Below, piece after piece: positions 1,469-62,480 of a stretch of DNA of 64,000 nt. This stretch comes from an uncultured Alphaproteobacteria bacterium (GTDB lineage Bacteria; Pseudomonadota; Alphaproteobacteria; MPNO01; UBA830). The stretch spans positions 5,116-69,115 of the forward strand of contig CAJWSW010000007.1 in NCBI GenBank assembly GCA_913046035.1. Reading direction: 5' to 3'. The notes under the pieces were generated by a model. The model did no database searches and had not been told where the DNA came from. It worked only from the letters and a program-made list of their open reading frames with translations. Both the position numbers and the translations under genes were made by a program. Positions within the stretch are counted from its first letter, which is position 1; each line of letters starts with the position of its first letter.

Positions 1469-1493
1469 AAGGGAATTCTCCGATACGGATTAC

Positions 1494-2303
1494 TCATACA
1501 GGCCGATAAAAGTGCCAGTCTCTTATTGGTATTTGAGCTTCTGTGTCCACCGATTTGATCAAAGCACGATATGGCCGATACAGCGTGCGAGAAGTCAGGA
1601 TCTGAAAAAGCCGCAATTTTTTGGTTTGTCGATACATTTTGTAATCAACCTCCGTGTACCCGTAATACCTTTTCAAAAGTCGGATAGCCGCGCGGACAGA
1701 AGGCATGAAGCTATCGTCAAAAACAATTGCCCCACCAGTGCGAAGCATCTGATTAATGTAATACAACTCCATCATTAAGTGGTCTAAGGTCTTCCAGCCA
1801 TCCATAAAAATAAAATCAAACTTCTCATTTGCGAGGAAAAGCTCTGGTACCGCGCGATTACTGTTGATTTGTATAAGGCGGTGCCGCGCCGAGAAACCGT
1901 TGTCGGATAATAATTTTTTCCCCCTCGTCGCGTCTTTTCCCACATCTAGGCATACCGAGGTGACACGACCATCACGGGCCGCCACAGCATTGGACATATA
2001 AAGTGCCGTGCTACCGGTGTGAAATCCCATCTCAAGGCAAGCTTCCCCCTCGATTTCCTGTAAAAGAAGATATAACAAATCCCCTTCTTCCGGATGGCAA
2101 TACGGGTATCCAGGTAAGCGCATCTTTTCAATGGCTTCGCGAATAGGGGCTGTCTCAAGGAGCGGCCGATAACGTAGGTATTCTGCGACGTAACGTTTCA
2201 AAATAAACTGCCGCTGTTTTTGCTGGCTTTGTTTAGTAATCGCATTTACCAGGTTCCTGACAGATAATCTCCACTGTGGTAGGAACATAACATGAGTAGC
2301 CAA
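1494..2303 (-). CDS. Class I SAM-dependent O-methyltransferase (family 3, caffeoyl-CoA OMT-like) with N-terminal extension
   Basis: Gly-rich LEMGFHTGSTALYM SAM-binding motif and FDFIFMDGWK (OMT family 3 DxDK-like motif). Its 5' end overlaps the divergent UbiD start. Confidence 0.6.
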   Translation of the reverse strand: MATHVMFLPQWRLSVRNLVNAITKQSQQKQRQFILKRYVAEYLRYRPLLETAPIREAIEKMRLPGYPYCHPEEGDLLYLLLQEIEGEACLEMGFHTGSTALYMSNAVAARDGRVTSVCLDVGKDATRGKKLLSDNGFSARHRLIQINSNRAVPELFLANEKFDFIFMDGWKTLDHLMMELYYINQMLRTGGAIVFDDSFMPSVRAAIRLLKRYYGYTEVDYKMYRQTKKLRLFQILTSRTLYRPYRALIKSVDTEAQIPIRDWHFYRPV

Positions 2304-3773
2304 GTAGACATAGAAGCAGCTGGGTCGAACGCAGGTTGTGTTCTGGAATACGATGACCTTCGAGACTGGCTATCAGCCGTCGAAGCGAAGGGGGATTTGA
2401 AGGTTGTAACTGGGGCCAACTGGCACACCGATATTGGGCAGGTAGTCGAAGTGATGTGTCACGACGAGGGCACGCCGTCCGTGCTGTTCGATCAGGTCGA
2501 GGGGTGCCCGTCTGGGTTTCGCATACTAATCAACTGGTTCACCGGCTCGCGCAAGAACCTGACGTTGGGTTTCCCGGAAAGCTTTGACAAATTAGAACTC
2601 TCGCGTGGTTACCACGCACACACTACAAATATGAAACCTGTGCGACACGAAATTGTTGACACCGGGCCTGTGCTGGAGAATGTCCTTGAGGGTGACAATA
2701 TTGACGTCACCAAGTTTCCGGCGCCGCTTTGGAACCCGGAAGATGGGGGCCGTTACATAGGTACTGGCTGTTTCAATATCACCCGCGACCCCGAAACTAA
2801 CTGGATCAATTGCGGTACCTATCGCGTTATGATCCACGATGAAAAACGCGTTGGGCTTTATATTTCGCCCGGAAAACATGGACGAATTCACCGCGAAAAA
2901 TACATGGCTAAGGGAGAACCCATGCCAGTTTGCATCGTTGTCGGGACGGATCCACTGTCCTTCCTAACCTCCTCAACCGAGGTACCGGAAGGAATGTGCG
3001 AACTTGACATGATGGGTGCATATCGGGGGAAGCCAATCCAATGCGTCACAGGCAAACATACTGGGTTGCCCTTCCCCGCTAATTCCGAAGTCGTGATTGA
3101 GGGTTTTATCCATCCAGGTAACACCGAAAGAGAAGGTCCCTTTGGTGAATGGTTGGGATATCAAGGAAGTGCAATGGAGGCAGAGCCTTGGGTCGATATC
3201 TCAGCAATTTACCATCGAAACGATCCCATCTTGCTCGGCGCAGCGCATATCAGGCTGCCTTATGAATATGCGCGCTACCGCGCAATTAGCCGGTCTGCCG
3301 TTCTAAAAGAAAGCATGGCCAAGGCAGGCGTTCCTGACGTAACGGAGGTATGGGCACATGAAGTTGGCGGCTCGCGCTTGTTTCTTGCAGTTGCAATTAA
3401 ACAACGTTACCCCGGCCATGCCGTTCAGGCTGGCCACATCGCCGCTATGTGTCACGCGGGTGCGTATCTCGGCCGGTTCGTTATAGTTGTCGATGAGGAC
3501 GTCAACGTTACCGATCTGGAAGAAGTCATTTGGGCCGCCTGCACGCGATGCGATCCAGTTTCCAATATCAATTTTATCGAGAACGCTTGGTCATCAGCAT
3601 TAGATCCTATCCTCTCCCCACAGGACCGAAAGGACGGAAAGCTGTACAATAGTCGCGCAATCATTGATGCTTGCCGCCCGTTTCATTGGAAAGACGATTT
3701 CCAGAAGGTCAATGCCCCTTCACCAGAGGCGCGCCGAGAGGCTTGGGACCGATGGGCGCATTTACGAGAATGA
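2292..3773 (+). CDS. UbiD-family (prFMN-dependent) reversible decarboxylase
   Basis: 493 aa, full-length UbiD/3-octaprenyl-4-hydroxybenzoate carboxy-lyase family architecture (WHTDIGQ..., GTGCFNITRDPETNWINCGTYR, EGPFGEWLGY). Confidence 0.8.
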   Translation: MSSQVDIEAAGSNAGCVLEYDDLRDWLSAVEAKGDLKVVTGANWHTDIGQVVEVMCHDEGTPSVLFDQVEGCPSGFRILINWFTGSRKNLTLGFPESFDKLELSRGYHAHTTNMKPVRHEIVDTGPVLENVLEGDNIDVTKFPAPLWNPEDGGRYIGTGCFNITRDPETNWINCGTYRVMIHDEKRVGLYISPGKHGRIHREKYMAKGEPMPVCIVVGTDPLSFLTSSTEVPEGMCELDMMGAYRGKPIQCVTGKHTGLPFPANSEVVIEGFIHPGNTEREGPFGEWLGYQGSAMEAEPWVDISAIYHRNDPILLGAAHIRLPYEYARYRAISRSAVLKESMAKAGVPDVTEVWAHEVGGSRLFLAVAIKQRYPGHAVQAGHIAAMCHAGAYLGRFVIVVDEDVNVTDLEEVIWAACTRCDPVSNINFIENAWSSALDPILSPQDRKDGKLYNSRAIIDACRPFHWKDDFQKVNAPSPEARREAWDRWAHLRE

Positions 3774-3898
3774 CCTCAGACTTTCCAGTGCTGGATCCCG
3801 AATTTTTATTTACGTTTGGTCAAGTTTTCTAAGAGATTGAAATTATCTGATACATGCATCCCGCCTCCGATAGCAAGACGAGGCAAGCTGCCTGTTGA

Positions 3899-6220
3899 TT
3901 ACGCGGCCTCTTTTATCGTCTTCCAGATACGCTGAGGTGTTGCCGGCATGTCGATGTGAGTAATCCCGAGCGGTTTGAGCGCGTCGACTATAGCGTTGAT
4001 TGTTGCGGGAAGGGCGCCGGTGGGCCCTGATTCTCCGCCACCCTTCGCGCCAATCAAATTTGAGTTTGTGATCGTCGGCGCGCTAACGATCTCCATCAGG
4101 CAAGTATCATCGGCGCGAGGTAGTGCGTAGTCCAGCAGGGATCCAGATATTAACTGCGCATCGGCATCGTAAGCGATATCCTCCATCAGCGCTTGTCCGA
4201 TACCCTGCACAATGCCGCCGTGCATCTGGGCCTTAAGCAATAACGGGTTGATTACAGTACCAACGTCGTCAACGCAAACGAAGTTGACGATATTCGTCTC
4301 ACCAGTCTCGGGATCGATTTCCAACTCACAAACCTGCACACCGGTTGGCCAATTCCAATATTGCGGAACAAAAGTTCCGATTTCATTCAGACCCGGCTCA
4401 ATGTCAGGCGGAAGCTTTGCAGGTTGATACGCGGAAGCCGCCACCTCTAATATGTTTAAGGTGCGATCAGTGCCGCTCACCGTGAAAACACCGGCTTCGA
4501 AGTCGATATCATCCTCGGGAGCCTCGAATAAGTGTGCCGCGATCCGCGTCGCTTTCTCTATAGTCTTGTCACAAGCCAGAGAGACAGCCGAGCCACCTAT
4601 AGACATAGACCGCGAATTAAACGTGCCGCGTCCATAAGTAACAATATCGGTGTCGCCCTGCACATAACGGATTATCGAAGGATCAAGACCAAGCCGATCA
4701 CAGACAATTTGTTTAAAGACAGTCTCATGCCCTTGGCCATGACTGATTGTTCCCATGATCAGCGTGACCGTGCCAGACGGATCAAATCGCACACTTCCGG
4801 ACTCCGGAAATGGAGAGGAGGTTTTCTTCACAGTATTGGAAATACCCAGTCCACGCAGTCTGCCACGCGCAATCGCCTCGGAGCGCCGAGCCTCAAAGCG
4901 GTCATAATCAGCAGCATTTAATGCCTTATCCATGTTTCCGGTGAAGTCTCCACAGTCATAGGTAAAGCCGAGCGCGTTAGTCCATGGCATTTGCTCAGAC
5001 GTGACGCTATTTTTTTGACGTATTTCCGCGGGATCCATGTCCAGTTCACGTGCAGCCATATCGATAATGCGTTCGCCTAGGTAGGCGGCCTCCGGCGCAC
5101 CGGCACCGCGATAAGGGTTAGTCGGTACCGTGTTCGTAAAAACTCCAGTAATAGAGACGTGAACAGCTGGCGTGCGGTAGGTGCCAGCCAGGGTGCCCAG
5201 ATTATTTGTGGGCGGACGCGGGCCGCGTATTGCAAGATATGCGCCCATTGCTGCCAAGGTCTTAACGCGGAGACCAAGGAAATAACCGTCTTTGTCCAGC
5301 GCCAGCTCGACCTCGCTTACATTATCACGCCCATGAGTATCAGACATAAAGCCTTCAGACCGATTTGCTCTCCACTTTACAGGGCGCTGAATTAACCGCG
5401 ATGCCCACAACACAAGTAGCAATTCATTATAGGTTCCCCCGCGCATCCCAAAGCTTCCGCCGACATCACCGGAAATCACTCGGACTGAAGTTTCGGAAAT
5501 TCCGAAAACCTGCCGCGCAATCTGATAGCGCAGCGGGTGTGGGTTCTGTAGGCCGGTGTATATCGTGTAGCGTTCGTGGCGTGGGTCGTAATCTCCAATG
5601 CAGCCCCGCGGCTCCATTGCAACCGCCGTAACGCGGTTGTTCACGAGTTTTTTACGAACCACGTGGGTAGCCTGCGCAAACGCAGACGCCACAGCATCTG
5701 CGTCCCCTTTCTGCTCTACAAAAGATATATTGCCCGGACAATCAGACCAAACGAGCGGTGCGTCCGGCAACACAGCCTCTTCGAGGTGAGCAACCGCTGT
5801 CAGTGGTTCGTACTCAATCAAGATGAGATCCGCCGCGTCCTGGGCTTGCGTTGCCGTCTCAGCGACGACGAAGGCAACAGGATCACCAACCATCTTCACC
5901 TGATTTGCAACCAGCGCGGGGTGATAGGGATGATAAATAGGGGAACCGTCAGGTCGTTTCTTTGTCGCGTCCTCACAAGGGAGGCTACCATAGTTTTCTG
6001 CCTCCCAGTCGATACCAGTTAAAACCTTTAATACGCCCGGCGCGGCCTCGGCTGCGGTAGTATCGATCGTTAAAATATTTGCTTTTGCATGCGGTGAGCG
6101 GAGCACAAAGCCCCACGCTTGACCTCTTAGATTAACGTCGTCCAAAAACTCGCCCCGGCCAGTCAAAAGTCTTGGATCTTCTTCTCGCGGCACGGATTGA
6201 CCGACTGCAAACTCTCCCAT
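3899..6220 (-). CDS. Xanthine dehydrogenase / aerobic CO dehydrogenase family molybdopterin-binding large subunit (orphan)
   Basis: 773 aa with GGSFG, NPYRGAGAPE (form-II CoxL-like AYRGAGR motif) and a C-terminal DDVGTVINP block. No adjacent S or M subunit genes. Confidence 0.8.
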   Translation of the reverse strand: MGEFAVGQSVPREEDPRLLTGRGEFLDDVNLRGQAWGFVLRSPHAKANILTIDTTAAEAAPGVLKVLTGIDWEAENYGSLPCEDATKKRPDGSPIYHPYHPALVANQVKMVGDPVAFVVAETATQAQDAADLILIEYEPLTAVAHLEEAVLPDAPLVWSDCPGNISFVEQKGDADAVASAFAQATHVVRKKLVNNRVTAVAMEPRGCIGDYDPRHERYTIYTGLQNPHPLRYQIARQVFGISETSVRVISGDVGGSFGMRGGTYNELLLVLWASRLIQRPVKWRANRSEGFMSDTHGRDNVSEVELALDKDGYFLGLRVKTLAAMGAYLAIRGPRPPTNNLGTLAGTYRTPAVHVSITGVFTNTVPTNPYRGAGAPEAAYLGERIIDMAARELDMDPAEIRQKNSVTSEQMPWTNALGFTYDCGDFTGNMDKALNAADYDRFEARRSEAIARGRLRGLGISNTVKKTSSPFPESGSVRFDPSGTVTLIMGTISHGQGHETVFKQIVCDRLGLDPSIIRYVQGDTDIVTYGRGTFNSRSMSIGGSAVSLACDKTIEKATRIAAHLFEAPEDDIDFEAGVFTVSGTDRTLNILEVAASAYQPAKLPPDIEPGLNEIGTFVPQYWNWPTGVQVCELEIDPETGETNIVNFVCVDDVGTVINPLLLKAQMHGGIVQGIGQALMEDIAYDADAQLISGSLLDYALPRADDTCLMEIVSAPTITNSNLIGAKGGGESGPTGALPATINAIVDALKPLGITHIDMPATPQRIWKTIKEAA

Positions 6221-6402
6221 CCCTTACATCCAATAAAATAACAATTTTAGTTCAAAAACGATGACTTAGCCCTTTAATTTCGGTATGTCGCCAAAGCAAT
6301 TAAGTGGCTTCAACCAGATTTTGTAATTTAGAACCGGCAAAAACCGGATAAGCACCAACTAACGGAACCCGGTATATAGGGCCTGCTTCAAATTTAAAAA
6401 GC

Positions 6403-7410
6403 TCAGCCCACCCGTCGCATAGGCGTTGGTTGCCCCATCGCATCTGCCAGCAATTCAAATGACCGCACCCGCGCTTCATGATCCCATATGGCGGCGGCAA
6501 CCACCAATTCATCGGCACCAGTGGCATCGATCAATGGAGCGAGCTTTTCGGGAATACTCTCAGGCGTGCCGTAAAATGAGCATGCCAGCATTGAAGAGGC
6601 CTGCACTTTCTCCTGCGGCGACCAGAAATCCTCAATATCGTCGATTGGCTTAGGCAACTTTCCGCGTGTGCCACGCAACATTCGAGTAGAGTTCTGTTGT
6701 GGCGAAGTGAACAGACGTTTGGCCTCTGCTTCCGTCTCGGCAACAATCGCATTACACCCAACCATTACATAGGGTTCCGCCAGCTGATCTGACGGTTCGA
6801 ACCGCTCACGGTAAATTTCTATCGCTTGCAGCAACGCCTGTGGCGCGAAGTGGGAAGCGAAAGCATAAGGCAGGCCAAGCATCGCCGCCAACTGCGCGCC
6901 AAATAGGCTTGAACCCAGTATATAGAGCGGTATGTTGGTGTCTTCTCCAGGTATTGCGTGCAACCACTGATTTTCTTGCGGCGGACCAAGCAAAGCCCGT
7001 AATTCAACAACATCTTGCGGAAATCGCTCTGACGATTCTGGTCCGCGCCGAAGCGCCTGCCATGTACGCTGGTCAGTGCCGGGTGCACGCCCCAGTCCAA
7101 GATCAATGCGTCCAGGGAACAGCGTAGCGAGTGTACCAAACTGTTCGGCAATTACCATTGGCGAATGATTGGGCAACATAATTCCACCCGACCCAACGCG
7201 TATCGTGTTAGTTCCGCCAGCGACATGGCAAATGCAAACAGCCGTTGCGGCACTCGCAATGCCAGAAAGATTATGATGCTCAGCAAGCCAATAGCGGGTA
7301 TAGCCAGCGGCCTCCGCGTGCCGTGCGAGATCAAGTGCGTTAGCGAGTGCGTCGGCCTGGGTAAAACCCTCTCCAATATTAGCGAGGTCGAGTACTGATA
7401 AATTAACCAT
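6403..7410 (-). CDS. LLM-class (luciferase-like) flavin-dependent oxidoreductase
   Basis: 335 aa, ...[22 protein letters not shown]... TIM-barrel luciferase-like monooxygenase signature. Confidence 0.75.
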
Positions 7411-7633
7411 AAATATAACCTAACTCAAAAGTAGATTGTCCGCCACGCGACAAATTGCATGCCAATTGCCTCAAGTTCAAAAATATACAGTGCTATGTAT
7501 TCGACCTTTTATCCAGAAAACAGGAATTAGGTGCCTAAAAAAATCAAAGCGCCGAAAATAAACTCGAGTAAACTGCGGGCGTTGTATCGGTTTAATCAAC
7601 TCTAACGTATTTCGAATTACTTATTGCCCGGTC

Positions 7634-8944
7634 CTACAGTAGTGAGGGCAAGAAGGTTACCAACGGCGGAAATACCGCAAGTGCCACCATACCCAGCAAG
7701 AACAGTGCAACGAATGGCCAAGCTGCATTGAACGCTTCAGAAATTGTCACTTTATCTGCGGCACCTTGAAACGCAAATATTACGTAGCCGAAGGGCGGAG
7801 ATATCCCACCAACCGTCACATTCAGCAGCATAATCAGCCAGAACCAAACCGGATCAAATCCCAACGTCGACAACAACGGTTGGTAAATGGGTATTACCAC
7901 TAACATTAATGCGATTTGGTCGATGAACATGCAAAGGATGAAGGGGATCAACATCATGATAAACAGCATGAGCATCGGTGACCAATCGAGCGAGACAATG
8001 AGATTAGTTAGCTCTGTGGTGGCACCGGAAAATGCCAAAAGCTGACTGAACATTCTCGAAGATGCCATAATCAGAAGGATCATACTGGTTATGAATGCCG
8101 ACGTCCCGAGCGACTCCACGATCATGGAAAAATTCAGCCGCCGATAGTAGGCTGCCGTTATCAACGAAGCGAGGACCCCGGTCGCTGCAGCTTCAGAGGG
8201 CGTGGCTATACCGAACATTATGAAACCCATCACCGAAAAAATGATAAGACCAAACGGCAAGCAACTTGCTACCGCACGCAGTTTTTCGGCGGTGGGCACC
8301 CTCTCTATAACGTCGTCAGCATCGTCGGGCGCAAGTTCAGGGTTTAGTTTGACCCTCACCATCGTGTAAAGAAGAAACAAACCCGCTAAAAGCAAGCCTG
8401 GGATTATGCCACCAATCAACAAACCTGCAATTGAGGTGTTTGATAACGTTCCGATAACAATGGCAAGAACACTGGGAGGGATGATCGGCGCTAAGCTTGC
8501 GCCAGCCAGCATTGTTCCAATGGAGAGCTTTGTGTCATAGCCGCGATTGCGCATCGTAGGAAAAAGCGTGCGGGCTAACATAGCCGCTACAGCCATCCCG
8601 GAACCCGACAATGCACCAAATACGGTGGAGAGTGAGATAGTCAGCACATACTGCCGACCTTTCATACGCCCCACCAACTTGTCGACTGCGTCAAACAGAA
8701 TATCGACTGAACCAGACCTAAATAATATTTCGGCCATCAGCACGAAAAGCGGGATTGTCGCTAGGTCAGCGTAATTCGCAGTATCAAAGATAGAATTTGC
8801 GACCATGCCAAAAGCGGCAGGGCCGAGGAAAATTGCAACACCGGCAAGATTGATTACAAGAAATGCAACGAATAACGGTGCCCCGGTCAAAAAGGCGGCC
8901 ATGAGCAATAAAAGCGTCGTAATGAGCGTTGCTTCCCAACCCAT
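7634..8944 (-). CDS. dctM: TRAP transporter large permease
   Basis: 436 aa polytopic membrane protein with DctM-like conserved blocks; immediately downstream of dctQ. Confidence 0.85.
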   Translation of the reverse strand: MGWEATLITTLLLLMAAFLTGAPLFVAFLVINLAGVAIFLGPAAFGMVANSIFDTANYADLATIPLFVLMAEILFRSGSVDILFDAVDKLVGRMKGRQYVLTISLSTVFGALSGSGMAVAAMLARTLFPTMRNRGYDTKLSIGTMLAGASLAPIIPPSVLAIVIGTLSNTSIAGLLIGGIIPGLLLAGLFLLYTMVRVKLNPELAPDDADDVIERVPTAEKLRAVASCLPFGLIIFSVMGFIMFGIATPSEAAATGVLASLITAAYYRRLNFSMIVESLGTSAFITSMILLIMASSRMFSQLLAFSGATTELTNLIVSLDWSPMLMLFIMMLIPFILCMFIDQIALMLVVIPIYQPLLSTLGFDPVWFWLIMLLNVTVGGISPPFGYVIFAFQGAADKVTISEAFNAAWPFVALFLLGMVALAVFPPLVTFLPSLL

Positions 8945-8946
8945 TG

Positions 8947-9474
8947 TCAGCCTTCTCCAAATCCGCCAAGTGCACCCGCCGCTGCGGGATCAATCTTACG
9001 CCAGTCGAGCATCCGCATGAAATGAAGTGTGGAGCTCGCAAAACCAAATGGGATAACCCAAGATATTAGATATTTTGGCACGGGTTCAACTGCCATTATG
9101 TGCACGTCATTTACCCACTGGCGCAGTGTTTCCCCGCCCGTAATCCAGGTTGCCAAACCACAAGCCAAAGCGCCAAGAAGATATGTGAACCATACGGCGG
9201 GGCGAACAGCCGGTTTGGGAAGTATATCGAAGATCAGTGCAACTGCGACGTGTCCTTTTTTCCAAGTGACATAGGGCATCATCATAAAGGTGCCCGCACA
9301 GAGGGAATAAGAAACAGCCTCACTGGCCCACCATTGAGGCGCATTGAAGAAATAACGCGCGAAAACCTCTATAATGTAGGCGCCAAAAATAACGGCTAAA
9401 GCCAAACACCCAAGGTAATAACCGGCCGTGGTGAGGTGGTCATGCCACCGGGTGACTATTGAGAGTGGGTTCAT
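8947..9474 (-). CDS. dctQ: TRAP transporter small permease
   Basis: 175 aa, 4 TM segments, adjacent to dctM and dctP. Confidence 0.8.
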   Translation of the reverse strand: MNPLSIVTRWHDHLTTAGYYLGCLALAVIFGAYIIEVFARYFFNAPQWWASEAVSYSLCAGTFMMMPYVTWKKGHVAVALIFDILPKPAVRPAVWFTYLLGALACGLATWITGGETLRQWVNDVHIMAVEPVPKYLISWVIPFGFASSTLHFMRMLDWRKIDPAAAGALGGFGEG

Positions 9475-9565
9475 AACGTAGCGAAAAATCTCTTACCATT
9501 AAGTGGCAAAAAGAGCACCTCGGCGGGTGAAGCCGCCGAGGTGACTAACCGAACATCAGCAGAAA

Positions 9566-10549
9566 TCAGGGGGAGATCCCTGCTTTTTTTGCCAAGTCCC
9601 GCATCTTTTTTGCGTCATCGCCGCAACACTTTTCGCCGAGAGCCCACAAGCTGTCAGAAAAAGCTTTTTTCATTGCAGCGACCTTATCCGCCGGGATCTG
9701 AGTGATTTTTACCCCGAGCTTCGCAAGCTTAGCATCCTCCTGAGCCTGCAATTCATCCCCAATCCAGGGCATTTGCAGCTCTGTCATCTCGCCAGCTTGT
9801 AACAGAATACCTTTTTCCTCTGCATTCAGCTTTTTCCAGCTATTCATGTTCATGAGGATGGGTAACGTCGAGGTTCCGAACGTCGGACGCACCTTGTACT
9901 TTGCAACTTCGAAATGCTTCATACTGAGCATACCAGCTGCAGGCCATGCAGCGCCATCGACGACCCCTTTTTCAAGGGCGGAATAAACCTGTGAACCCGG
10001 CATAACGACTGGCTCACCACCGAAAAGCTTGATGACGCCGTGGTAAGTCTGAGTGCCACGAATCTTTCGACCGTCCCAAGATCCCCCCTTAATCGGGTCT
10101 TTCAGGAAGATGTGATAACCAGCTGTGCTGCTGGGAGAGATCGCAAGAAGCTTAAGTGAATGTGTTTTCTGATAAAATTTGTCCAATGAGTCCCAAACGC
10201 CAGAAGACCGTTTCCCGACTGGGTCCGCGGTCATAGCGTCGGCAATGGCAGCAAGGCCTTTCGAACCGACATGATAAACGCCATGGGTGAACAAAATATC
10301 GAACACACCAGATTTTACAGGCTGAAGCTGCTCAAAAGGAGGAACAACCTCCGGGCCGCTGATTCTTAGATTTACCTTGTCGCCGCCCACCTTAGCGACA
10401 TTTTTGACGAATGTGTCTAGCACCACATATGTGGGCCAGATGTTTTTGTTCCAACTCGCAAGTACCTTCAAATTTGCAGCAGAAACTGACGTAGCTGTCA
10501 TCATGACCCCAGCCGCAAGTGCAGAGGTAAGTACCGATCGCAATTTCAT
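9566..10549 (-). CDS. dctP: TRAP transporter solute-binding protein (DctP family)
   Basis: 327 aa with an N-terminal signal peptide (MKLRSVLTSALAAGVMMTATSVSAA) and DctP-family length, first gene of a P-Q-M operon. Confidence 0.85.
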   Translation of the reverse strand: MKLRSVLTSALAAGVMMTATSVSAANLKVLASWNKNIWPTYVVLDTFVKNVAKVGGDKVNLRISGPEVVPPFEQLQPVKSGVFDILFTHGVYHVGSKGLAAIADAMTADPVGKRSSGVWDSLDKFYQKTHSLKLLAISPSSTAGYHIFLKDPIKGGSWDGRKIRGTQTYHGVIKLFGGEPVVMPGSQVYSALEKGVVDGAAWPAAGMLSMKHFEVAKYKVRPTFGTSTLPILMNMNSWKKLNAEEKGILLQAGEMTELQMPWIGDELQAQEDAKLAKLGVKITQIPADKVAAMKKAFSDSLWALGEKCCGDDAKKMRDLAKKAGISP

Positions 10550-10883
10550 TTCTAGTCCTTTCGAATGTTTTGCCCCTAACGCCGCATTGAAAATTACGGT
10601 TCTTGTTCTAATCTCCCCATTTTAAGGAAGGTATACCTTATTATGGTAAGCATATTGCGGCGAAGCGCAACGGGTGATCCCAAATTCTATCAAATTTTGT
10701 AATAGCCCAATTTCCGGCCACCACGAACCCATTACAATATTTTACTAAATGACCAACCTAGGAAAGGATCGCTGGAAGTAAGCGTATAAACCGAGCAAAA
10801 CGCGCCTTAATCCCGGTATTTTTGACATCGATAGTTAACTACCCATTGGTGACTTGCCGAGATGCAAATTTCATAAAACGAAA

Positions 10884-11810
10884 CTAGTCCCGCGTTTGGA
10901 AAACGTTCAGCGGAACCTTTATATACGAAGTCCCATTTTCTTCCACCGGAGGAAAATGGCCTGCACGCATGTTAACTTGAACAGCGGGGATAATTAGGCG
11001 TGGCAGGGAAAGAGTTGCGTCACGATCGCTGCGCATCTGAACGTAATCGTCCTCTTTCACACCGCCGCTGATATGGATATTCGATCGACGCTGCTCACCC
11101 ACAGTCGTTTCCCATGCAAAATCACGAACGCCACCGGCGCCGTAGTCATGGCAGACGAAGAGACGCATCTCGTCGGGTAGAGAAAATATCTTTTGGAGAG
11201 AACCAAAAAGTTGTTTGGCATCGCCACCCGGGAAATCGCAACGGGCCGTGCCGGAGTCCGGCATGAACATGGTGTCTCCAATGAAGCAGGCGTTGCCAAT
11301 TATGTACGTAACACAGGAAGGAGTATGCCCAGGGGTTGCGATTACGCGCGCGTCGATATCTCCGACTTTGAACTTTTCTCCGTCATCAAACAACTTATCG
11401 TATGGAGACGCCTCTGTATCAATTATGTCTAAAGCATTAAAGACTTCTCCAAATGTTGCCCGGACTTCCCGAATACCGCTTCCGACACCCGTCTTGCTTC
11501 CCAGTCGCATCTTAAGCCAATTTGATGCTGTCAAATGATCAGCGTGGACATGCGTTTCGAGAATCCAATCGACACTAAGATTTTTTGCCGCGACATGGTC
11601 AAGTATTCTCTCAGCGCTCTCGCTCGACGTGCATGCTGAAATTGGGTCGAAATCCAGCACAGGATCGATAATAGCCGCTCGCCTAGTTTCAGGATCCGCA
11701 GCGACATAGGAAGCGCTGTTGGTTTTTTCATCAAAAAAACACACTATGTCAGCGTTCATGTTGTTCTGCCTGTACTGATCAAAAACGGATTGCTGGGACA
11801 AAATTATCAA
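10884..11810 (-). CDS. MBL-fold metallo-hydrolase (HxHxDH; glyoxalase II / persulfide dioxygenase-like)
   Basis: HVHADH motif plus downstream His/Asp ligands. Divergent from the molybdoenzyme operon. The true start may be the internal Met at about 11759. Confidence 0.7.
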   Translation of the reverse strand: MIILSQQSVFDQYRQNNMNADIVCFFDEKTNSASYVAADPETRRAAIIDPVLDFDPISACTSSESAERILDHVAAKNLSVDWILETHVHADHLTASNWLKMRLGSKTGVGSGIREVRATFGEVFNALDIIDTEASPYDKLFDDGEKFKVGDIDARVIATPGHTPSCVTYIIGNACFIGDTMFMPDSGTARCDFPGGDAKQLFGSLQKIFSLPDEMRLFVCHDYGAGGVRDFAWETTVGEQRRSNIHISGGVKEDDYVQMRSDRDATLSLPRLIIPAVQVNMRAGHFPPVEENGTSYIKVPLNVFQTRD

Positions 11811-12057
11811 GAATCGAATACAAATCGAGATGTTTTTGGCGCATTTGTAAGACAGCCTTTTCAGATGATGGACTGCAAAAGAGTGATATTTCGCATGTCT
11901 TCAACTATTAACGCAGCCCAAGAGTTAGACTACATGTGAAAGATAGTCACACCTAGGTGTTTTCCGCATGGCGAGGTTTGACCGAATGAAGGTTCTGCCG
12001 TAATCCTAAATTTCCCCGCGGGTCATTCCCGTTACAATCGATGGAAATGCAAACGCC

Positions 12058-14979
12058 ATGCCCGGCGACTTTCTCAACCCTGAAGAACAAATCAACCTTT
12101 CACCCCAAATCGGCGACGAAACGAAAACTTCGACGTGCTATATGTGTGCCTGTCGCTGTGGCATCAAAGTGCATCTTCGCGATGGCCAAATTCGCTACAT
12201 CGAAGGTAATAAAGACCACCCAGTCAACAAAGGCGTATTATGTGGCAAGGGTTCAGCCGGGATTATGCAGCACTACTCGCCAGCTCGGCTTACCAAACCG
12301 CTTCGCCGCGTGGGTGAGCGCGGTGCGGGTCACTTTGAAGAAATAGAATGGGATGATGCGCTTCAAATAGTGAGTGCGAGGCTTGCTAAGATCCGAGCGC
12401 GAGACCCAAAGAAACTTGCTTTCTTCACTGGCCGCGACCAAAGCCAGGCTTTGACCGGCTGGTGGGCGAGCCAATTCGGTACACCGAACCACGCTGCCCA
12501 CGGAGGGTTCTGCTCCGTAAATATGGCGGCCGCCGGCTTGTACACTATCGGCGGGTCTTTTTGGGAATTTGGAGAGCCTGACTGGGAGTCGACCGAATAT
12601 TTTATGATGTTTGGTGTCGCGGAGGACCATGATTCCAATCCTATCAAGATGGGCCTTTCGACACTTAAAAAACGTGGCGCTAAATTCGTATCTGTTAACC
12701 CGGTTAAAACCGGATACTCGGCCATAGCTGACGAGTGGATTGGGATTAAGCCTGGAGGTGATGGTGCATTCGTTTTGGCGCTTATTCACGAATTATTGCG
12801 CGCCGATAAAATCGACCTCGACTACTTAGTTCGATATACCAACGCTCCTTGGTTAGTTATCAAAGATCCGGGCGCAGCTGATGACGGGCTGTTTGCCCGC
12901 GGCCCTGACGGCGAAGAATTATGTTGGGATGCCAATACCGATCAGATCGCTGATGCACGACTCGCGGGCGTAGCACCGAAAATTGTAGGCGAAGTGAGAC
13001 TGGATGACGGGCGGACGGCGGTGCCTGCGTTCCAGATAATGGCAGAACGCTACATGGATGACACCTACAGTCCAGAGGCCGCCGCACTGCGGTCGGGCGT
13101 GCCAGCTCACCATATTCGACGCATCGCGGCGGAACTAGCGGAGGCTGCCTTTGACAAAGAGATTATATTAGACGTCGAGTGGACCGATTGGGCCGGTCGC
13201 AAACATGATAAGATGATCGGTCGCCCCGTCTCCATGCATGCAATGCGCGGCATCTCGGCTCACTCAAACGGCTTTCATACTTGCCGTGCAATCCACGTGC
13301 TGCAAATGCTGTTAGGCACGATCGACGTCCCCGGCGGTTTCCGATACAAACCACCATTTCCACGGCCCTGCCCACCACCACAGAAGCCCGCTGGAAAACC
13401 TGATGAGGTAAAACCGGACACAATTTTGCCCGGTCCGCCATTAGGGTTTCCAACAAGCCCCGCGGATCTCCTAATTGATGAGAAAGGTGCAGCGCAACGT
13501 ATCGACAAAGCCTATTCCTGGGAGGCGCCGGTGTCAGCCCACGGGCTGATGCATATGGTTATAACAAACGCTTGGAAAGGCGATCCATACCCTATTGATA
13601 CTCTGTTTATGTTTATGGCGAATATGTCCTGGAACTCATCTATGAATACGTCTGGGGTCATGGAAATGCTTACAGACCGCGATGGGGAAACCGGCGAATA
13701 CAAAATTCCCTTTATTGTATACTCCGACGCCTTTTGGTCTGAGACTGTGCCATATGCTGACATAGTTCTCCCTGACACAACTTATCTAGAACGGTGGGAC
13801 TGCATATCGCTACTTGACCGCCCGATCTGTTCTGCCGATGGGCCCGCCGACGCAATTCGACAGCCGGTAGTTGAGCCTGATCGCGACGTTCGACCTTTCC
13901 AATCAGTGCTGTTGGATCTGGGGGCACGGCTGGGCCTTCCTGGAATGACGAATGAAGACGGGTCACCGAAGTATCCAGGCGGTTATCCTGACTACCTCGT
14001 CAATCACGAACGCGCGCCGGGTATAGGGCCATTGGCGGGTTGGCGTGGCGAGGATGGCGGCAGCGAAGGGACTGGCGCGATTAACCCCAAGCAACTAGAT
14101 CGCTATATTGAAAATGGCTGTTTTTGGAGCCATGATTTTCCGGAAAACCAACGGTATTATAAACACGCAAACCGGGATTATCTTGAGTATGCAGCTGAAT
14201 CGGGTTGGATCGGATCGTCGGATCAGATAGTGATGCAGCTTTATTCGGAGCCGATGCAAAAATTCCGTCTCGCAGCGCAAGGCCATGGCGATATCAATCC
14301 GCCAGAACAGCACCGGATGCGGGTAAATGGATATTTCGATCCGCTGCCAACCTGGTACCGTCCATTAGAGTCACACGATGGGATTGAAGACGAATACCCC
14401 TTCTATGCACTTACCCAACGGCCGATGGCGATGTACCACTCTTGGGGTTCGCAAAATGCTTGGCTGCGTCAAATTCATACGAGCAATCGACTGTATATGA
14501 ACCGAACCAAAGCTGAATTGGAGGGCCTCAAAGACGACGACTGGGTTTGGGTGATTAGCCATCATAGTCGGATCAAAGTGCAAATTCGGCTTATGGAGGG
14601 CACACAACAGGATACTGTCTGGACATGGAATGCGATTGGCAAGCGCTCAGGTGCCTGGAACCTAGATACAGATGCGCCTGAAGCCAAGAAAGGGTTTCTG
14701 CTAAACCACGTGATATCCGAATTACTTCCTCCAAAGGAGAATGGATACAGGTATTCCAACTCCGACCCAGTAACGGGACAAGCCGCTTGGTATGATTTGC
14801 GTGTCCGCATCGAAAAAGCCGATCCTGAGGAAGCAGCTGATGCTACCACATACCCTCAGTTTAAGGCTCAACCAACAAGAGGGGGGCACAGTTTACGCGA
14901 CAATATCCTTCGTTATGGCGGACTTTTTAAGCCCGTGAGTTCCAAAGCCGACAACCAGGACAATGGAACCGGCGCATGA
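12058..14979 (+). CDS. Molybdopterin oxidoreductase catalytic subunit, no Tat signal (SoeA-like sulfite dehydrogenase large subunit candidate)
   Basis: 973 aa. N-terminal CYMCACRCG...C [4Fe-4S] motif of the MopB/DMSO-reductase superfamily. No twin-arginine leader, and an in-frame stop lies 17 codons upstream of the ATG. ATGA-coupled to the FeS subunit. Confidence 0.8.
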   Translation: MPGDFLNPEEQINLSPQIGDETKTSTCYMCACRCGIKVHLRDGQIRYIEGNKDHPVNKGVLCGKGSAGIMQHYSPARLTKPLRRVGERGAGHFEEIEWDDALQIVSARLAKIRARDPKKLAFFTGRDQSQALTGWWASQFGTPNHAAHGGFCSVNMAAAGLYTIGGSFWEFGEPDWESTEYFMMFGVAEDHDSNPIKMGLSTLKKRGAKFVSVNPVKTGYSAIADEWIGIKPGGDGAFVLALIHELLRADKIDLDYLVRYTNAPWLVIKDPGAADDGLFARGPDGEELCWDANTDQIADARLAGVAPKIVGEVRLDDGRTAVPAFQIMAERYMDDTYSPEAAALRSGVPAHHIRRIAAELAEAAFDKEIILDVEWTDWAGRKHDKMIGRPVSMHAMRGISAHSNGFHTCRAIHVLQMLLGTIDVPGGFRYKPPFPRPCPPPQKPAGKPDEVKPDTILPGPPLGFPTSPADLLIDEKGAAQRIDKAYSWEAPVSAHGLMHMVITNAWKGDPYPIDTLFMFMANMSWNSSMNTSGVMEMLTDRDGETGEYKIPFIVYSDAFWSETVPYADIVLPDTTYLERWDCISLLDRPICSADGPADAIRQPVVEPDRDVRPFQSVLLDLGARLGLPGMTNEDGSPKYPGGYPDYLVNHERAPGIGPLAGWRGEDGGSEGTGAINPKQLDRYIENGCFWSHDFPENQRYYKHANRDYLEYAAESGWIGSSDQIVMQLYSEPMQKFRLAAQGHGDINPPEQHRMRVNGYFDPLPTWYRPLESHDGIEDEYPFYALTQRPMAMYHSWGSQNAWLRQIHTSNRLYMNRTKAELEGLKDDDWVWVISHHSRIKVQIRLMEGTQQDTVWTWNAIGKRSGAWNLDTDAPEAKKGFLLNHVISELLPPKENGYRYSNSDPVTGQAAWYDLRVRIEKADPEEAADATTYPQFKAQPTRGGHSLRDNILRYGGLFKPVSSKADNQDNGTGA

Positions 14980-15737
14980 CCCTCTTACCCCCGCGAGCCA
15001 AACCAGGCGATAGAAAGCTTGGACTAGTTATCGATCTCGATACCTGTGTCGGATGTCATGCCTGTGCGGTAAATTGCAAGGAATGGAATACCGGAGGGCA
15101 TTCCGCGCCACTACCGGATCATGATCCTTACGGTACTGACCCAAATGGTGTCTGGTTCAACCGTGTTCACACGTTCGAGGCGGGCAAGGGAACCGATAGC
15201 CGAACAGTACATTTTCCTCGATCGTGTCTACATTGCGAAGATGCAGCCTGCGTTTCCGTGTGCCCCACCGGTGCTTCCTATAAGCGGGATGAAGACGGGA
15301 TTGTTTTAGTAAACGAAGACGCCTGCATAGGCTGCAAACTCTGCTCGTGGGCCTGCCCCTACGGCGCACGCGAATATGATTCAGATTCAGGTGTCATGAA
15401 AAAATGCACACTTTGCATTGACCGGATATATAACGAAAACCTTGAGGAGGAAGACCGCGTCCCTGCATGTGTGTCCACCTGCCCGGCGAGCGCGCGTCAT
15501 TTCGGCGATCTGAATGATCCGGAGTCCGACGTGTCTCAACTGGTCAAGGAACGTGGTGGACAAGAATTAATGCCAGAGTTGGGCTACAAACCCGTAAACC
15601 GCTACCTACCTCCACGGGCGAGAAAGAGAGAGCAAAGCCCATCCGGGGTTGGAGCAAAGCTAGAGCCGCTAGTCGATCTGGCTCCAAACCGAGACAACAA
15701 GTTTCTCCGCTGGGTTGACCGGGTGCTGTCTCGATGA
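14976..15737 (+). CDS. 4Fe-4S ferredoxin-type iron-sulfur subunit (SoeB/PsrB/DmsB-like)
   Basis: 253 aa with four Cys clusters (CVGCHACAVNC, CLHCEDAACVSVCP, CIGCKLCSWACP, CTLC...CPASA). Confidence 0.85.
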   Translation: MTLLPPRAKPGDRKLGLVIDLDTCVGCHACAVNCKEWNTGGHSAPLPDHDPYGTDPNGVWFNRVHTFEAGKGTDSRTVHFPRSCLHCEDAACVSVCPTGASYKRDEDGIVLVNEDACIGCKLCSWACPYGAREYDSDSGVMKKCTLCIDRIYNENLEEEDRVPACVSTCPASARHFGDLNDPESDVSQLVKERGGQELMPELGYKPVNRYLPPRARKREQSPSGVGAKLEPLVDLAPNRDNKFLRWVDRVLSR

Positions 15738-15803
15738 ACCCTTGTTTTGTAGTAAAATGCATAGAAACGTATTTATGCCCTTCAAAAAACGAACTTCGTT
15801 AAA

Positions 15804-16751
15804 ATGAATCCCGCCTACTCTGTAATATTTTTCACCACCGCGTCCGGAGCAGGCTACGGATTGATTTTTCTGCTAGCCCTTTTTGGCGCGCTAAATGGCG
15901 TGCCCATTGATCCATGGTTTGGCGCTATCGGGTTAGGTCTTGGTACGGCATTGGTGACTGGGGGGTTGCTCTCGTCAACCATGCATCTTGGCCATCCTGA
16001 AAGGGCATGGCGTGCCTACAGTCAGTGGAAGTCTTCGTGGCTCTCACGCGAAGGTGTTTTGGCGACTACCACCTATGTGCCGCTTATCCTGACTGCCTGG
16101 GGCTGGGTAATAATGGGCGCGATAGATGGTAACTTCGCGTTCATCGCAGCCTTGCTCGCGTTGATGTGTGTGTTGACTGTTCATTCCACCGGTATGATCT
16201 ACGCAACATTAAGAACGATCAGCGCATGGCATAATCGTTTGACCGTGCCTGGATATCTTGCCTTTGCTCTACTCTCGGGGTCAGCCTGGTTTCACGCACT
16301 AGCCCAAATATTCGGATACCAGACGCCAGAGATTGCGCTGGTTGTTATTGTAGCGCTGTTTCTTTGTTTTTATATAAAGCGAAAATATTGGCGCAGCATC
16401 GACATGTATCCAGGTCCTTCAACTCCTGAAAGCGCAACTGGATTGCACGATCTCGGCAAGGTGCGACTGCTTGATCCGCCGACCATGACTGAAAATTTTG
16501 TCCAGCGCGAAATGGGATATACAATTGCCCGCAAGCACGGGCAAAAGCTGCGCCGCCTCTGTTTTATAAGTTATTTTCTTATTCCAATAGTCCTGACCGG
16601 GCTCACTAGTAGCGCGGATCCGTGGCTTGCTATTCCCGGCACTCTAATAGCTGCGATCTCGGTATCTGTGGGAGTGGTAATTGAGCGCTGGCTTTTTTTT
16701 GCCGAAGCAAAGCATGTGTCGATGTTATACTACGGCGCTGATGGCGCATAG
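15804..16751 (+). CDS. NrfD/PsrC-family membrane anchor subunit (SoeC-like)
   Basis: 315 aa, about 8 predicted TM helices, third gene of the molybdoenzyme operon. Confidence 0.75.
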   Translation: MNPAYSVIFFTTASGAGYGLIFLLALFGALNGVPIDPWFGAIGLGLGTALVTGGLLSSTMHLGHPERAWRAYSQWKSSWLSREGVLATTTYVPLILTAWGWVIMGAIDGNFAFIAALLALMCVLTVHSTGMIYATLRTISAWHNRLTVPGYLAFALLSGSAWFHALAQIFGYQTPEIALVVIVALFLCFYIKRKYWRSIDMYPGPSTPESATGLHDLGKVRLLDPPTMTENFVQREMGYTIARKHGQKLRRLCFISYFLIPIVLTGLTSSADPWLAIPGTLIAAISVSVGVVIERWLFFAEAKHVSMLYYGADGA

Positions 16752-16909: not shown

Positions 16910-17695
16910 ATGGCGACGCATACCTCTGAGAAGAAAACTATCGCTGGGTGCGAAATAGAGTTGCTTAAGGGCGGCAACGGGCCGCCATTAGTCTTCTTAC
17001 ATGGTGCCGGCGGCGCACATAATTGGATGCCATATATGGAGCGGCTCTCCGAACATTTTGCCCTAACGGTTCCCAGCCACCCCGGATGGGGTCGCTCCGA
17101 TACACCGGATTGGCTGGACGGTATGGGTGACCTGGCCTACTTCTATCTCGAGTTTCTAAAAGAAATGGATTTGGGAAAGACCCACCTGGTAGGAAACTCG
17201 TTGGGAGGCTGGCTCGCACTGGAAATTGCTGTTCGCTCGACCGCGCAGATTGAAACACTGACGCTCGTTTCCGCGGCTGGAATACACGTTGACGGAGTTC
17301 CAAAAGGCGACATCTTCCTATGGGACGATAATGAACGGGTTTACAATACGTTTTACGATCCCAAGTTCGCCGAGGCTCGTCTCGCTAAGCAGCCATCAGA
17401 AGAGGATGCCAATATCTCGTTAAAAAACCATTTCTCAACAGCAAAAATGGCATGGCACCCCCGGTTTTATAATCCAGAACTGCAAAAATGGCTGCATCGG
17501 ATCGATATACCAACCTTAATCCTATGGGGGGATTCAGACAAAATATTCCCCCCAGCCTATGGAAGGGCTATGCAAAAACTTATCCCTGGTTCAAAATTAA
17601 CAATATTACCCGAATGCGGGCACTTGCCGCAGCAAGAAAAACTAGAAGACTTTATCTCGGGCGTTACCGCCCACACGAACGGAGCCGCATCATGA
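16910..17695 (+). CDS. Alpha/beta-fold hydrolase
   Basis: 261 aa with HGAGG oxyanion region, GNSLGG nucleophile elbow and a C-terminal GH catalytic His. Confidence 0.8.
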   Translation: MATHTSEKKTIAGCEIELLKGGNGPPLVFLHGAGGAHNWMPYMERLSEHFALTVPSHPGWGRSDTPDWLDGMGDLAYFYLEFLKEMDLGKTHLVGNSLGGWLALEIAVRSTAQIETLTLVSAAGIHVDGVPKGDIFLWDDNERVYNTFYDPKFAEARLAKQPSEEDANISLKNHFSTAKMAWHPRFYNPELQKWLHRIDIPTLILWGDSDKIFPPAYGRAMQKLIPGSKLTILPECGHLPQQEKLEDFISGVTAHTNGAAS

Positions 17696-18864
17696 AGTTC
17701 TATTTCTTTCACCTCATGCCGTACCAAGACATTGATCCGGACTATTTAAAAACCAATAAATCTTCATGGATTAATTTGCCAAATTCCTATTACGACCCGA
17801 AAAAGGGAGCGAAACTATATCACCGGTATTTGGACGAATTGGAACTAGCAGACACGCTCGGTTTCGATGGCGTTTGCGTAAACGAACATCATCAGACCGC
17901 CTATGGTATGATGCCCTCACCTAATGTGTTGGCTGGTGCGCTCTCACGACGACTGAAGAAGGCAACGGTGGGTGTGATCGGCCGGGCTCTTCCCATCGTC
18001 GATAACCCACTTACCATCGCAGAAGAATTCGCGATGATTGATAACTTAATGGAAGGCCGATTTATCGCTGGCTTTGTTCGCGGTATCGGATGCGAATACC
18101 ATGCATCAATGACAAACCCAGGCTTCAGTCTTGAGCGGTTTCGTGAAGCACACGACTTAATCGTCCGTGCGTGGACCGACCCCGGACCATTCGAATTTTA
18201 CGGCAAGCACTATCATTACCAATATGTGAACCCGTGGCCTCGTCCTTATCAGAGCCCGCGCCCACCAATTTGGATCCCATCGCAAGGATCAACGGAAACT
18301 GTTGAATTTGCGGCGCACCCGGATCGGCGATACACCTATATCATCACTTTTAGCCCGGTAGCATCAGTGCGCAAGAACATGAAAGCCTACCGCGACCAAT
18401 GCCAAGTGTATGGTTACGAATGCCCAGCAGAACAAATGGGTTGGGCAATGCCCGCCTACATTGCCGAGACTGATGCAATTGCGCGCAAAGAGGCGGCTCC
18501 GCATATAGAGAGCCTTTTCAACAAGTTCATATCCTCGCCGTCTCAGTACAAACTACCGCCAGGTTATTCGTCGTTGGCCAGTTATAAGGCGGTCATGGAG
18601 GGGAAATACAAGGTCCGTGAAAACTATCTAGATTGCGACAGTCTTATCGAGAACGGTATGTTCTTGTGTGGCAGCGCCGAAACCGTAGCCGCCAAGCTTG
18701 AGGAATACCAGAAGGAAATGGGCTTCGGAAACATCGCACCCATGCTGCAATTTGGCACGCTTCCAAAAGAGCTGACAGAGAAAAACCTGCGCCTATTTGC
18801 TGAAGAGGTAATACCCAAGGTCAGACATCTCGGCGTCGATATGGAGACCTTGGCAGCCGAATAA
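17692..18864 (+). CDS. LLM-class flavin-dependent oxidoreductase
   Basis: Starts MKFYFFHLMPYQD... and has luciferase-like motifs. ATGA overlap with the upstream hydrolase. The ORF-track N-terminal extension from 17488 overlaps the hydrolase and is rejected. Confidence 0.75.
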   Translation: MKFYFFHLMPYQDIDPDYLKTNKSSWINLPNSYYDPKKGAKLYHRYLDELELADTLGFDGVCVNEHHQTAYGMMPSPNVLAGALSRRLKKATVGVIGRALPIVDNPLTIAEEFAMIDNLMEGRFIAGFVRGIGCEYHASMTNPGFSLERFREAHDLIVRAWTDPGPFEFYGKHYHYQYVNPWPRPYQSPRPPIWIPSQGSTETVEFAAHPDRRYTYIITFSPVASVRKNMKAYRDQCQVYGYECPAEQMGWAMPAYIAETDAIARKEAAPHIESLFNKFISSPSQYKLPPGYSSLASYKAVMEGKYKVRENYLDCDSLIENGMFLCGSAETVAAKLEEYQKEMGFGNIAPMLQFGTLPKELTEKNLRLFAEEVIPKVRHLGVDMETLAAE

Positions 18865-27496: not shown

Positions 27497-27507
27497 GGAG
27501 ACACGAA

Positions 27508-28353: not shown

Positions 28354-28367
28354 GAAGTACACACGAA

Positions 28368-29177: not shown

Positions 29178-29293
29178 CGTTGCCCTATAACAGAACCGCG
29201 CCGTTTGAAACACCGATTAGAGTAACCCCTAGTGGGTAAAATCTCCCAGCGCTTAACTAGTCCCGCGAACGTATCAACCCCACAAATTCAGCG

Positions 29294-39577: not shown

Positions 39578-39600
39578 TCCTGGATCAGAATACAACCTTT

Positions 39601-44914: not shown

Positions 44915-45028
44915 CCAGACACCCTTTCCAAGTTTGCATCTTGATCCCGCGGCGGCATGCGGGCAAGAGTACAACATACAAACACATTGATAGAATTAAA
45001 CCTAAAACGGGCTTAGGGGTAGAAAACT

Positions 45029-62479: not shown

Positions 62480-62480
62480 A

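Follow-up and report, generated by a model that had tools for sequence, protein, structure and literature searches.

The stretch of DNA analysed here (the window; 64,000 nucleotides, positions 5,116 to 69,115 of contig CAJWSW010000007.1 in assembly GCA_913046035.1, from an uncultured Alphaproteobacteria bacterium) encodes the three subunits of a putative SoeABC-type sulfite:quinone oxidoreductase in the order soeA-soeB-soeC and, divergently and back-to-back with soeA, a putative persulfide dioxygenase gene (pdo). Taken together, pdo and soeABC are interpreted as a module leading from persulfide through sulfite to sulfate, a reading to which a probability of roughly 0.65 is given. In this module, PDO would convert glutathione persulfide and O2 to cytoplasmic sulfite, which would be oxidised to sulfate at the molybdenum (Mo) centre of SoeA, while the electrons would pass through five iron-sulfur clusters (one [4Fe-4S] cluster in SoeA and four clusters in SoeB) to quinone at SoeC. 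SoeA and SoeB are predicted to lie on the cytoplasmic face of the membrane, docked to the eight-helix SoeC, because neither of them carries an export signal. The pair would turn sulfane sulfur into sulfate inside the cell with two electrons recovered to the quinone pool, and the sulfane sulfur could originate from sulfide, cysteine or organosulfur breakdown. The features concerned are as follows.

10884-11759 (open reading frame, ORF, to 11810), minus strand: pdo, putative persulfide dioxygenase of the P. putida PDO type (PDB matches and motifs).
11978-12006, plus strand: promoter-like element (TTGACC, a 17 nt spacer and TAATCC) within the 298-bp divergent intergenic region 11760-12057.
12058-14979, plus strand: soeA, catalytic subunit with molybdenum bis(pyranopterin guanine dinucleotide) (Mo-bisPGD), 973 amino acids (aa), 108.5 kDa (Pfam Molybdop_Fe4S4, Molybdopterin and Molydop_binding).
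14976-15737, plus strand: soeB, four-cluster ferredoxin subunit, 253 aa, 27.9 kDa (Pfam Fer4_11).
15804-16751, plus strand: soeC, NrfD/DmsC-type quinone-interacting membrane anchor, 315 aa, 34.5 kDa (Pfam DmsC).

The Molybdop_Fe4S4 domain spans residues 22-73 of SoeA (Pfam), and four cysteine residues (C27, C30, C34 and C62) form the N-terminal [4Fe-4S] motif CX2CX3CX27C. C152, located in the sequence HGGFCSVN, is the probable Mo ligand by analogy with PsrA, and HGGFCS is kept in all 154 full-length SoeA homologues except one, which has HGGLCS. The N-terminus of SoeA reads MPGDFLNPEEQINLSPQIGDETKTSTC... and is devoid of RR, while the N-terminal stretch MPGDFLNPEEQINLSPQIGDETKTSTCYMCACRCG contains no twin-arginine motif of the twin-arginine translocation (Tat) type. 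An in-frame stop codon lies 17 codons 5' of the soeA ATG with no ATG, GTG or TTG in between, and therefore a corrected start cannot add a Tat leader. None of the 154 full-length homologues (154/154) has a Tat-like motif ahead of the iron-sulfur cysteines.

The start of soeB overlaps the stop of soeA by 4 nt, and its product contains 16 cysteine residues in four groups (24/27/30/34, 84/87/92/96, 117/120/123/127 and 144/147/165/169) and no RR motif; its best solved relative is PsrB (2vpw_B, 123 bits). SoeC matches Pfam DmsC with 56 bits (cut-off 22.3) and has 8 hydrophobic segments, equivalent to 8 predicted transmembrane helices (hydropathy). Since its Lys/Arg-rich loops (58-84, 125-151 and 192-248) and C-terminus alternate sides, both SoeC termini would be cytoplasmic, as implied by the positive-inside rule only. 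SoeC also contains the motif H61-x16-S78-x2-S81-x-E83, present in 66 of 74 orthologues, whose spacing is that of the published conserved residues His65, Ser82, Ser85 and Glu87 of A. aeolicus SoeC (PMC8076601). A PDB search gave no sequence-detectable match to SoeC among solved structures, and the 2026 copy of PDB apparently contains no structure of a SoeABC complex.

The product of pdo is most likely ~291 aa long, starting from Met18 (ATG at 11759), because alignments with solved structures start at ORF residue 16-19, and the orthologues in two related loci (L001 and L082) have 287 aa. It matches several PDB entries over its full length (9g8t, 365 bits; 4ysk/4ysl, 334 bits; 4efz, 295 bits) and shares 53% identity with 9g8t and 4ysk across 284 aa. 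The motifs HVHADH (residue 87), PGHTP (residue 160) and GDTMF (residue 178) are kept; going by what is known of ETHE1, these presumably provide the Fe ligands. The NCBIfam model of the bifunctional sulfurtransferase/dioxygenase Blh (NF040641) gives 381 bits (cut-off 625) and covers profile positions 136-423 only; the match runs through the dioxygenase part alone, and the enzyme is therefore predicted to be a stand-alone PDO. An identification as Blh was rejected, with the score under the cut-off and no rhodanese domain present. Judged from these similarities, the predicted product is a genuine persulfide dioxygenase homologue.

SoeABC is defined (Dahl 2013, as quoted in PMC5114278) by a membrane anchor of the NrfD/PsrC-like kind and two cytoplasmic subunits, given in PMC5114278 and PMC8076601 as one iron-sulfur protein and one molybdoprotein that carries an iron-sulfur site at its N-terminus. 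The window genes agree with this definition in order, subunit types, N-terminal cysteine motif, four-cluster SoeB and eight-helix SoeC, and the locus is accepted as one encoding a putative sulfite:quinone oxidoreductase of this type. In a search of 5.8 billion proteins, full-length SoeA relatives among the 120 best matches considered are 69-100% identical to the window protein; JGI gives the name 'sulfite dehydrogenase (quinone) subunit SoeA' to several of those that are 84-85% identical, and others bear generic names. At 90% identity, the window SoeA falls into a protein cluster of 115 members, among them Tara Oceans sequences and metagenome-assembled genomes labelled Rhodospirillaceae bacterium; those members that bear a name appear as 'formate dehydrogenase', 'molybdopterin oxidoreductase family protein' or 'anaerobic selenocysteine-containing dehydrogenase'.

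When species-representative genomes were scanned, at least 594 stretches encoding a SoeA relative were obtained, of which the best 80 loci were used, none of them from A. vinosum, R. pomeroyi or Aquifex. In these, SoeA is 65-85% identical to the window protein, and the labels are mostly those of Alphaproteobacteria with a few Gammaproteobacteria or Comamonadaceae. The gene soeB directly follows soeA in 76 of the 80 loci and soeC is present in 72, the order soeA-soeB-soeC being kept; cases of missing soeB or soeC partly coincide with short contigs ending just past soeA. Outside this proteobacterial family, full-length relatives fall to 36-45% identity (e.g. Desulfitobacteriaceae and Saccharolobus), as found in a search of 1.84 billion representatives in which the matches listed were mostly fragments.

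When SoeA was compared with NCBIfam models of other molybdoenzymes, the scores against the cut-offs were 241/694 for PhsA, 147/778 for DmsA-YnfE, 87/1750 for TtrA, 83/1600 for ArrA, 129/666 for Fdh-alpha and 125/814 for FDH-N, and the nearest solved structure, Thermus PsrA, reaches only 143 bits. An identity as PhsA, PsrA, TtrA, DmsA, ArrA or Fdh was rejected, all models being far under their cut-offs. FqoABC or formate dehydrogenase, suggested by names in NCBI, were likewise rejected, the Fdh models falling under their cut-offs; FqoABC is moreover FdnGH-like and has been reported from other phyla.

An earlier note on this DNA had described a 973 aa MopB subunit with a Cys4 motif, no Tat leader and a stop 17 codons upstream, a 253 aa four-cluster ferredoxin subunit and a 315 aa NrfD/PsrC-type anchor, all of which agree with the Pfam matches, the 16 cysteines of SoeB and the 8 hydrophobic segments of SoeC reported above. 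Its assignment of the complex as a cytoplasm-facing one of the SoeABC type is supported by the architecture, subunit sizes, cofactor motifs, lack of Tat signals, JGI names and other models under cut-off. Of the findings that the note had named as contrary to its reading, a grouping with Psr, Phs or Ttr is not indicated by the models, under whose cut-offs SoeA stays far, and a Tat signal on a corrected start is excluded, as the upstream stop and the lack of a start codon make an extension impossible. As for the divergent gene, the note went no further than an HxHxDH metallo-beta-lactamase (MBL) fold, the persulfide dioxygenase fold, which is correct and understates the 53% identity to solved PDO-type enzymes.

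The pairing of pdo with soeABC recurs beyond the window. Counted by tblastn (at least 46% identity, within 10 kb), pdo lies near soeABC in 10 of the 80 loci, or 12 when the window and L082 (GCA_036337725.1, SoeA 86% identical, compared with the window by DNA and protein synteny) are included. In six of these (the window, L001, L002, L049, L071 and L082) pdo is divergent from and adjoining soeA, and in L007, L023, L031, L061, L065 and L067 it lies within 10 kb; its partner in L023 is a rhodanese-YgaP sulfurtransferase. When the five ORFs flanking soeABC on either side were clustered for 83 loci, the surroundings proved highly variable, with no neighbour family in more than 8 of them, and the pdo family tied as the commonest neighbour and was the one most frequent at position -1. 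Other recurrent neighbours comprise a MocR-type regulator, Alph_Pro_TM proteins, Usp, a class-III aminotransferase and TauE. An identification of the MocR/GntR regulators as TauR and of the class-III aminotransferases as Tpa was dropped, as the NCBIfam scores are PdxR-like and AptA-like, respectively.

The window and L082 share a backbone of a histone-deacetylase-like gene, a luciferase-like monooxygenase (LLM) gene, pdo divergent from soeABC, a hydrolase gene, a second LLM gene, an amidase gene and an RF-1-domain gene, whereas L001 (labelled Paracoccaceae) keeps LLM, pdo and soeABC and differs in its downstream genes. Between pdo and soeA, L082 shares the block GGTTTGACCGAA...GTTCTGCC.TAATCCT with the window and L001 does so in part (alignment), and the TTGACC-17 nt-TAATCC element probably drives soeABC. 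A generic promoter and terminator scan performed no better on the window than on shuffled sequence and did not list this element; Rfam and tRNA scans of the window gave no matches, including none to a molybdenum cofactor riboswitch.

Several observations weigh against the proposed persulfide-to-sulfate module. Only 12 of 83 loci have pdo close to soeABC, and several of these are from related lineages; SQR, rhodanese and a TauE-type exporter have no candidate among the larger ORFs of the window (domain survey, with ORFs 60135-63689 outside it). No SoeABC proteins were detected in Beggiatoa leptomitoformis at a time of PDO activity (PMC11507549), and deletion of soeABC in R. pomeroyi reportedly impaired sulfite oxidation slightly and thiosulfate oxidation strongly (preprint 10.1101/2022.12.07.519552). 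The last result also speaks for a different main reaction within a complex that is Soe-like by sequence, i.e. thiosulfate oxidation or the reduction of a sulfur oxyanion or polysulfide, as does the fact that, beyond the family itself, no characterised enzymes are closer than the Psr and Phs reductases. This is nevertheless considered very improbable, as sulfite:quinone activity is described for the A. aeolicus and A. vinosum SoeABC in work cited in PMC8076601 and PMC12345210, the PhsA model stays far under its cut-off, the predicted cytoplasmic orientation would be unsuited to periplasmic polysulfide or thiosulfate respiration, and the neighbouring PDO would make sulfite. A general cytoplasmic detoxifier of sulfite from any source, including sulfur assimilation, with the adjacency of pdo a lineage-specific accident, would explain why most loci have no pdo within 10 kb and why no neighbour family is widespread; it is distinctly unlikely, since the pairing recurs in several arrangements where SoeA is only 66-71% identical (L049, L071, L023/L031 and the Tagaea loci), and chance alone would put a single-copy gene within 10 kb in far fewer than 1% of loci (own estimate, with a ~4 Mb genome assumed). 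The proposed module parallels the reported occurrence of SoeABC together with Dsr and sHdr, systems that produce sulfite in the cytoplasm (PMC6397845). The earlier note favoured the disposal of sulfite from imported organosulfonates; the genes on the far side of pdo are as follows.

6403-7410, minus strand: LLM335, MsnO8/YhbW-family luciferase-like oxidoreductase (TIGR03558, 429 bits).
7634-8944, minus strand: dctM, membrane subunit of a putative tripartite ATP-independent periplasmic (TRAP) transporter (Pfam DctM).
8947-9474, minus strand: dctQ of the same transporter (Pfam DctQ).
9566-10549, minus strand: dctP, binding protein of the same transporter (Pfam DctP).

The presence of DctPQM, of the LLM gene at 6403-7410, of the MBL-fold gene at 10884-11810 and of TauD and LLM genes elsewhere, on which the earlier note had built, is confirmed by the ORFs and Pfam. 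In the model built on that note, the TRAP system would import isethionate, 2,3-dihydroxypropane-1-sulfonate (DHPS) or sulfolactate, the TauD and LLM enzymes would desulfonate, and SoeABC would dispose of the sulfite, the whole forming an island that routes sulfonate-derived sulfite to sulfate. Such a role has some backing, as R. pomeroyi soeABC (SPO3559-3557) lies directly beside pta (SPO3560) and near tauR (SPO3562) (PMC4334477), 3 loci have TauE sulfite-exporter genes in the vicinity of soeABC, soeABC of one relative (L081) has sulfonate-type neighbours, described below, and the window itself holds four TauD-family and several LLM genes. It is considered unlikely here. With the taurine dioxygenase model NF007104 (cut-off 313), the four TauD-family proteins reach 146-166 bits, and with SsuD TIGR03565 (cut-off 518) the LLMs reach 42 and 56 bits. 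The TRAP binding protein, of which the Pfam DctP match covers only the C-terminal half, shares the three-gene DctPQM architecture with the isethionate TRAP system, but reaches only 34 bits with the isethionate-binding DctP (8t9t), against 90 bits with its best PDB match, 4mnc, which may be a binder of a 2-oxo acid. No candidate for Xsc, SuyAB or CuyA was found among the larger ORFs of the window, surveyed with general Pfam families only and with ORFs 60135-63689 outside the scan. No coherent sulfonate island is seen in the window, because the GC content is flat (~0.50) and the backbone is that of a syntenic core chromosome. Neither the import function, nor the sulfonate enzymes, nor the island is thus borne out, and TRAP, TauD and LLM neighbours taken without specificity tests are no evidence for sulfonate catabolism.

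The TRAP genes are also not conserved beside soeABC in relatives. The syntenic L082 has nothing corresponding to the TRAP-bearing segment 7411-10898, and in L001 the slot beside pdo is filled by HTH/PIN-type genes (7075-8589). Small helix-turn-helix (HTH), PIN and VapB-type genes are seen in this slot at 7075-8589 in L001 and at 8593-8922 in L071. The slot is suggested to be an insertion hot spot, because its content differs between the window (TRAP) and these two loci (HTH/PIN/VapB-type). A 334-bp AT-rich gap separates the TRAP genes from pdo in the window.

Orthologues of the TRAP binding protein that are 76-77% identical occur in two genomes, divergent beside oxc, frc and an acyl-CoA ligase gene, the products of the first two scoring 1013 bits as oxalyl-CoA decarboxylase (cut-off 557) and 724 bits as formyl-CoA transferase (cut-off 442); an orthologue with 67% identity has a different gene context. 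These clusters (L083 2115-9910 and L084 1334-9895, the latter also carrying a split GntR/FCD regulator) look like candidate TRAP-dependent oxalate utilisation clusters. By this comparison, the probable substrate of the window TRAP is oxalate or another small (di)carboxylate like it, and the best inference is that it is a neighbour inserted here by chance and not a part of the pdo-soeABC module.

Sulfonate-linked soeABC contexts may exist elsewhere in the family, as suggested by the gene neighbours at L081. In this locus (8109-16115, SoeA 84% identical), soeABC stands beside a split thiamine pyrophosphate enzyme resembling sulfopyruvate decarboxylase and TauD-family genes; the two subunits of this enzyme score 126/148 and 118/222 bits (score/cut-off), both under the cut-offs, which speaks against the sulfonate role, and there is no pdo at L081.

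Downstream of soeC, after a 158-bp AT-rich gap, are two further genes.

16910-17695, plus strand: alpha/beta hydrolase (Pfam).
17692-18864, plus strand: LLM390, 390 aa, translationally coupled to the hydrolase (Pfam, ATGA overlap).

The start of LLM390 overlaps the stop of the hydrolase gene in the ATGA at 17692-17695, and this overlap, together with the same 390 aa in L082, sets the length of LLM390 at 390 aa instead of the 458 of the mechanical call. The hydrolase-LLM390 pair is conserved with L082 only, while LLM335 is a neighbour of pdo in L082 and is found in L001 at 87% identity. Thus, the block of LLM335 and pdo, divergent from soeABC, hydrolase, LLM390 and amidase is common to the window and L082, and L001 keeps LLM335, pdo and soeABC of it. 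That the entire block constitutes a single pathway through which pelagic Alphaproteobacteria process some as yet unrecognised organosulfur compound is highly doubtful; if it were true, the amidase, the hydrolase and the flavin monooxygenases would release sulfane sulfur or sulfite, which PDO and SoeABC would take to sulfate with conservation of energy. In the preferred reading of a pdo-soeABC module, the TRAP, LLM, hydrolase and TauD paralogues are unrelated or unproven neighbours.

Elsewhere, the window consists of a patchwork of paralogous genes for catabolism and transport. Three tandem TauD/TfdA-family genes (291, 286 and 281 aa), followed by two PhyH-family dioxygenase genes, are located at 25764-30109, and a fourth TauD gene at 47201-48088. 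Five EamA transporter genes of the drug/metabolite transporter (DMT) family, four of them head-to-tail, lie at 37743-41369 and 42364-43236, and L082 has three EamA genes in a row past greA. There are three large subunits of Mo hydroxylases of the xanthine dehydrogenase/carbon monoxide dehydrogenase (XDH/CODH) family (3899-6220, 53824-56169 and 56200-59851), and one XDH/CODH set also has subunits binding flavin adenine dinucleotide (56664-57479) and 2Fe-2S (56200-56667). The one at 3899-6220 reaches neither the glyceraldehyde dehydrogenase nor the CO dehydrogenase cut-off, and it has no counterpart in L082. Genes for UbiD-family decarboxylases, dependent on prenylated flavin mononucleotide, are found at 2292-3773 and 43292-44977, the first of them in a segment missing from L082; the whole of 1469-6429 (methyltransferase, UbiD and XDH-like genes) has no counterpart in L082. 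The window also holds an NtaA/DmoA-type LLM gene, HpaB and an efflux set of major facilitator superfamily, HlyD and MarR genes.

SoeABC is an ordinary, already known kind of enzyme, and PDO is likewise well characterised. Already described in A. vinosum, A. aeolicus and R. pomeroyi, SoeABC has been reported in ~100 alphaproteobacterial species (PMC4334477, PMC12345210, PMC8076601). The recurrent back-to-back pairing of the two provides genomic support for a PDO-to-Soe route in heterotrophs, which has so far only been suggested; such a route would yield sulfate and quinol rather than leaked sulfite or thiosulfate and would parallel the Dsr-Soe and sHdr-Soe routes. The placement of SoeA also corrects the names in public databases of a cluster of abundant marine proteins, which now refer to formate or selenocysteine-containing dehydrogenases.

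Compared with the P. putida PDO (4YSK/4YSL), a type II enzyme, the window PDO belongs to the same ~290 aa class and keeps, at 53% identity, HxHxDH as well as the metal-ligand motifs with His and Asp downstream of it, and it differs in that its gene stands back-to-back with soeA. The bifunctional Blh/PRF type is rhodanese-bearing, unlike the window PDO. The complex iron-sulfur molybdoenzyme architecture is shared with PsrABC/PhsABC (T. thermophilus, 2VPW-2VPZ), which provide the nearest solved structures for SoeA and SoeB. PsrA is exported by the Tat pathway and faces the periplasm. The window SoeA is ~200 aa longer than PsrA/PhsA-type subunits, with the low PsrA and PhsA scores given above, and SoeC is described as inverted relative to PsrC (PMC8076601).

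In described features, the closest likeness is to the characterised SoeABC of A. vinosum (Alvin_2491-2489), A. aeolicus (aq_1234-1231, with aq_1231 as soeC) and R. pomeroyi (SPO3559-3557), which have the same three subunits in the same gene order, a SoeA with an N-terminal [4Fe-4S] cluster and no signal peptide, a four-cluster SoeB and an eight-helix NrfD-like SoeC, as in the window. The masses of the window subunits (108.5, 27.9 and 34.5 kDa) may be set beside those of A. vinosum SoeABC, for which Dahl et al. in 2013 reportedly gave ~109, 27 and 36 kDa. Two differences stand out, i.e. the host, an uncultured marine Rhodospirillaceae-type alphaproteobacterium unlike the characterised ones, and the genomic partner, which is a divergent pdo in the window, dsr or sHdr in sulfur oxidisers (PMC6397845), and pta, with tauR nearby, in R. 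pomeroyi (PMC4334477).

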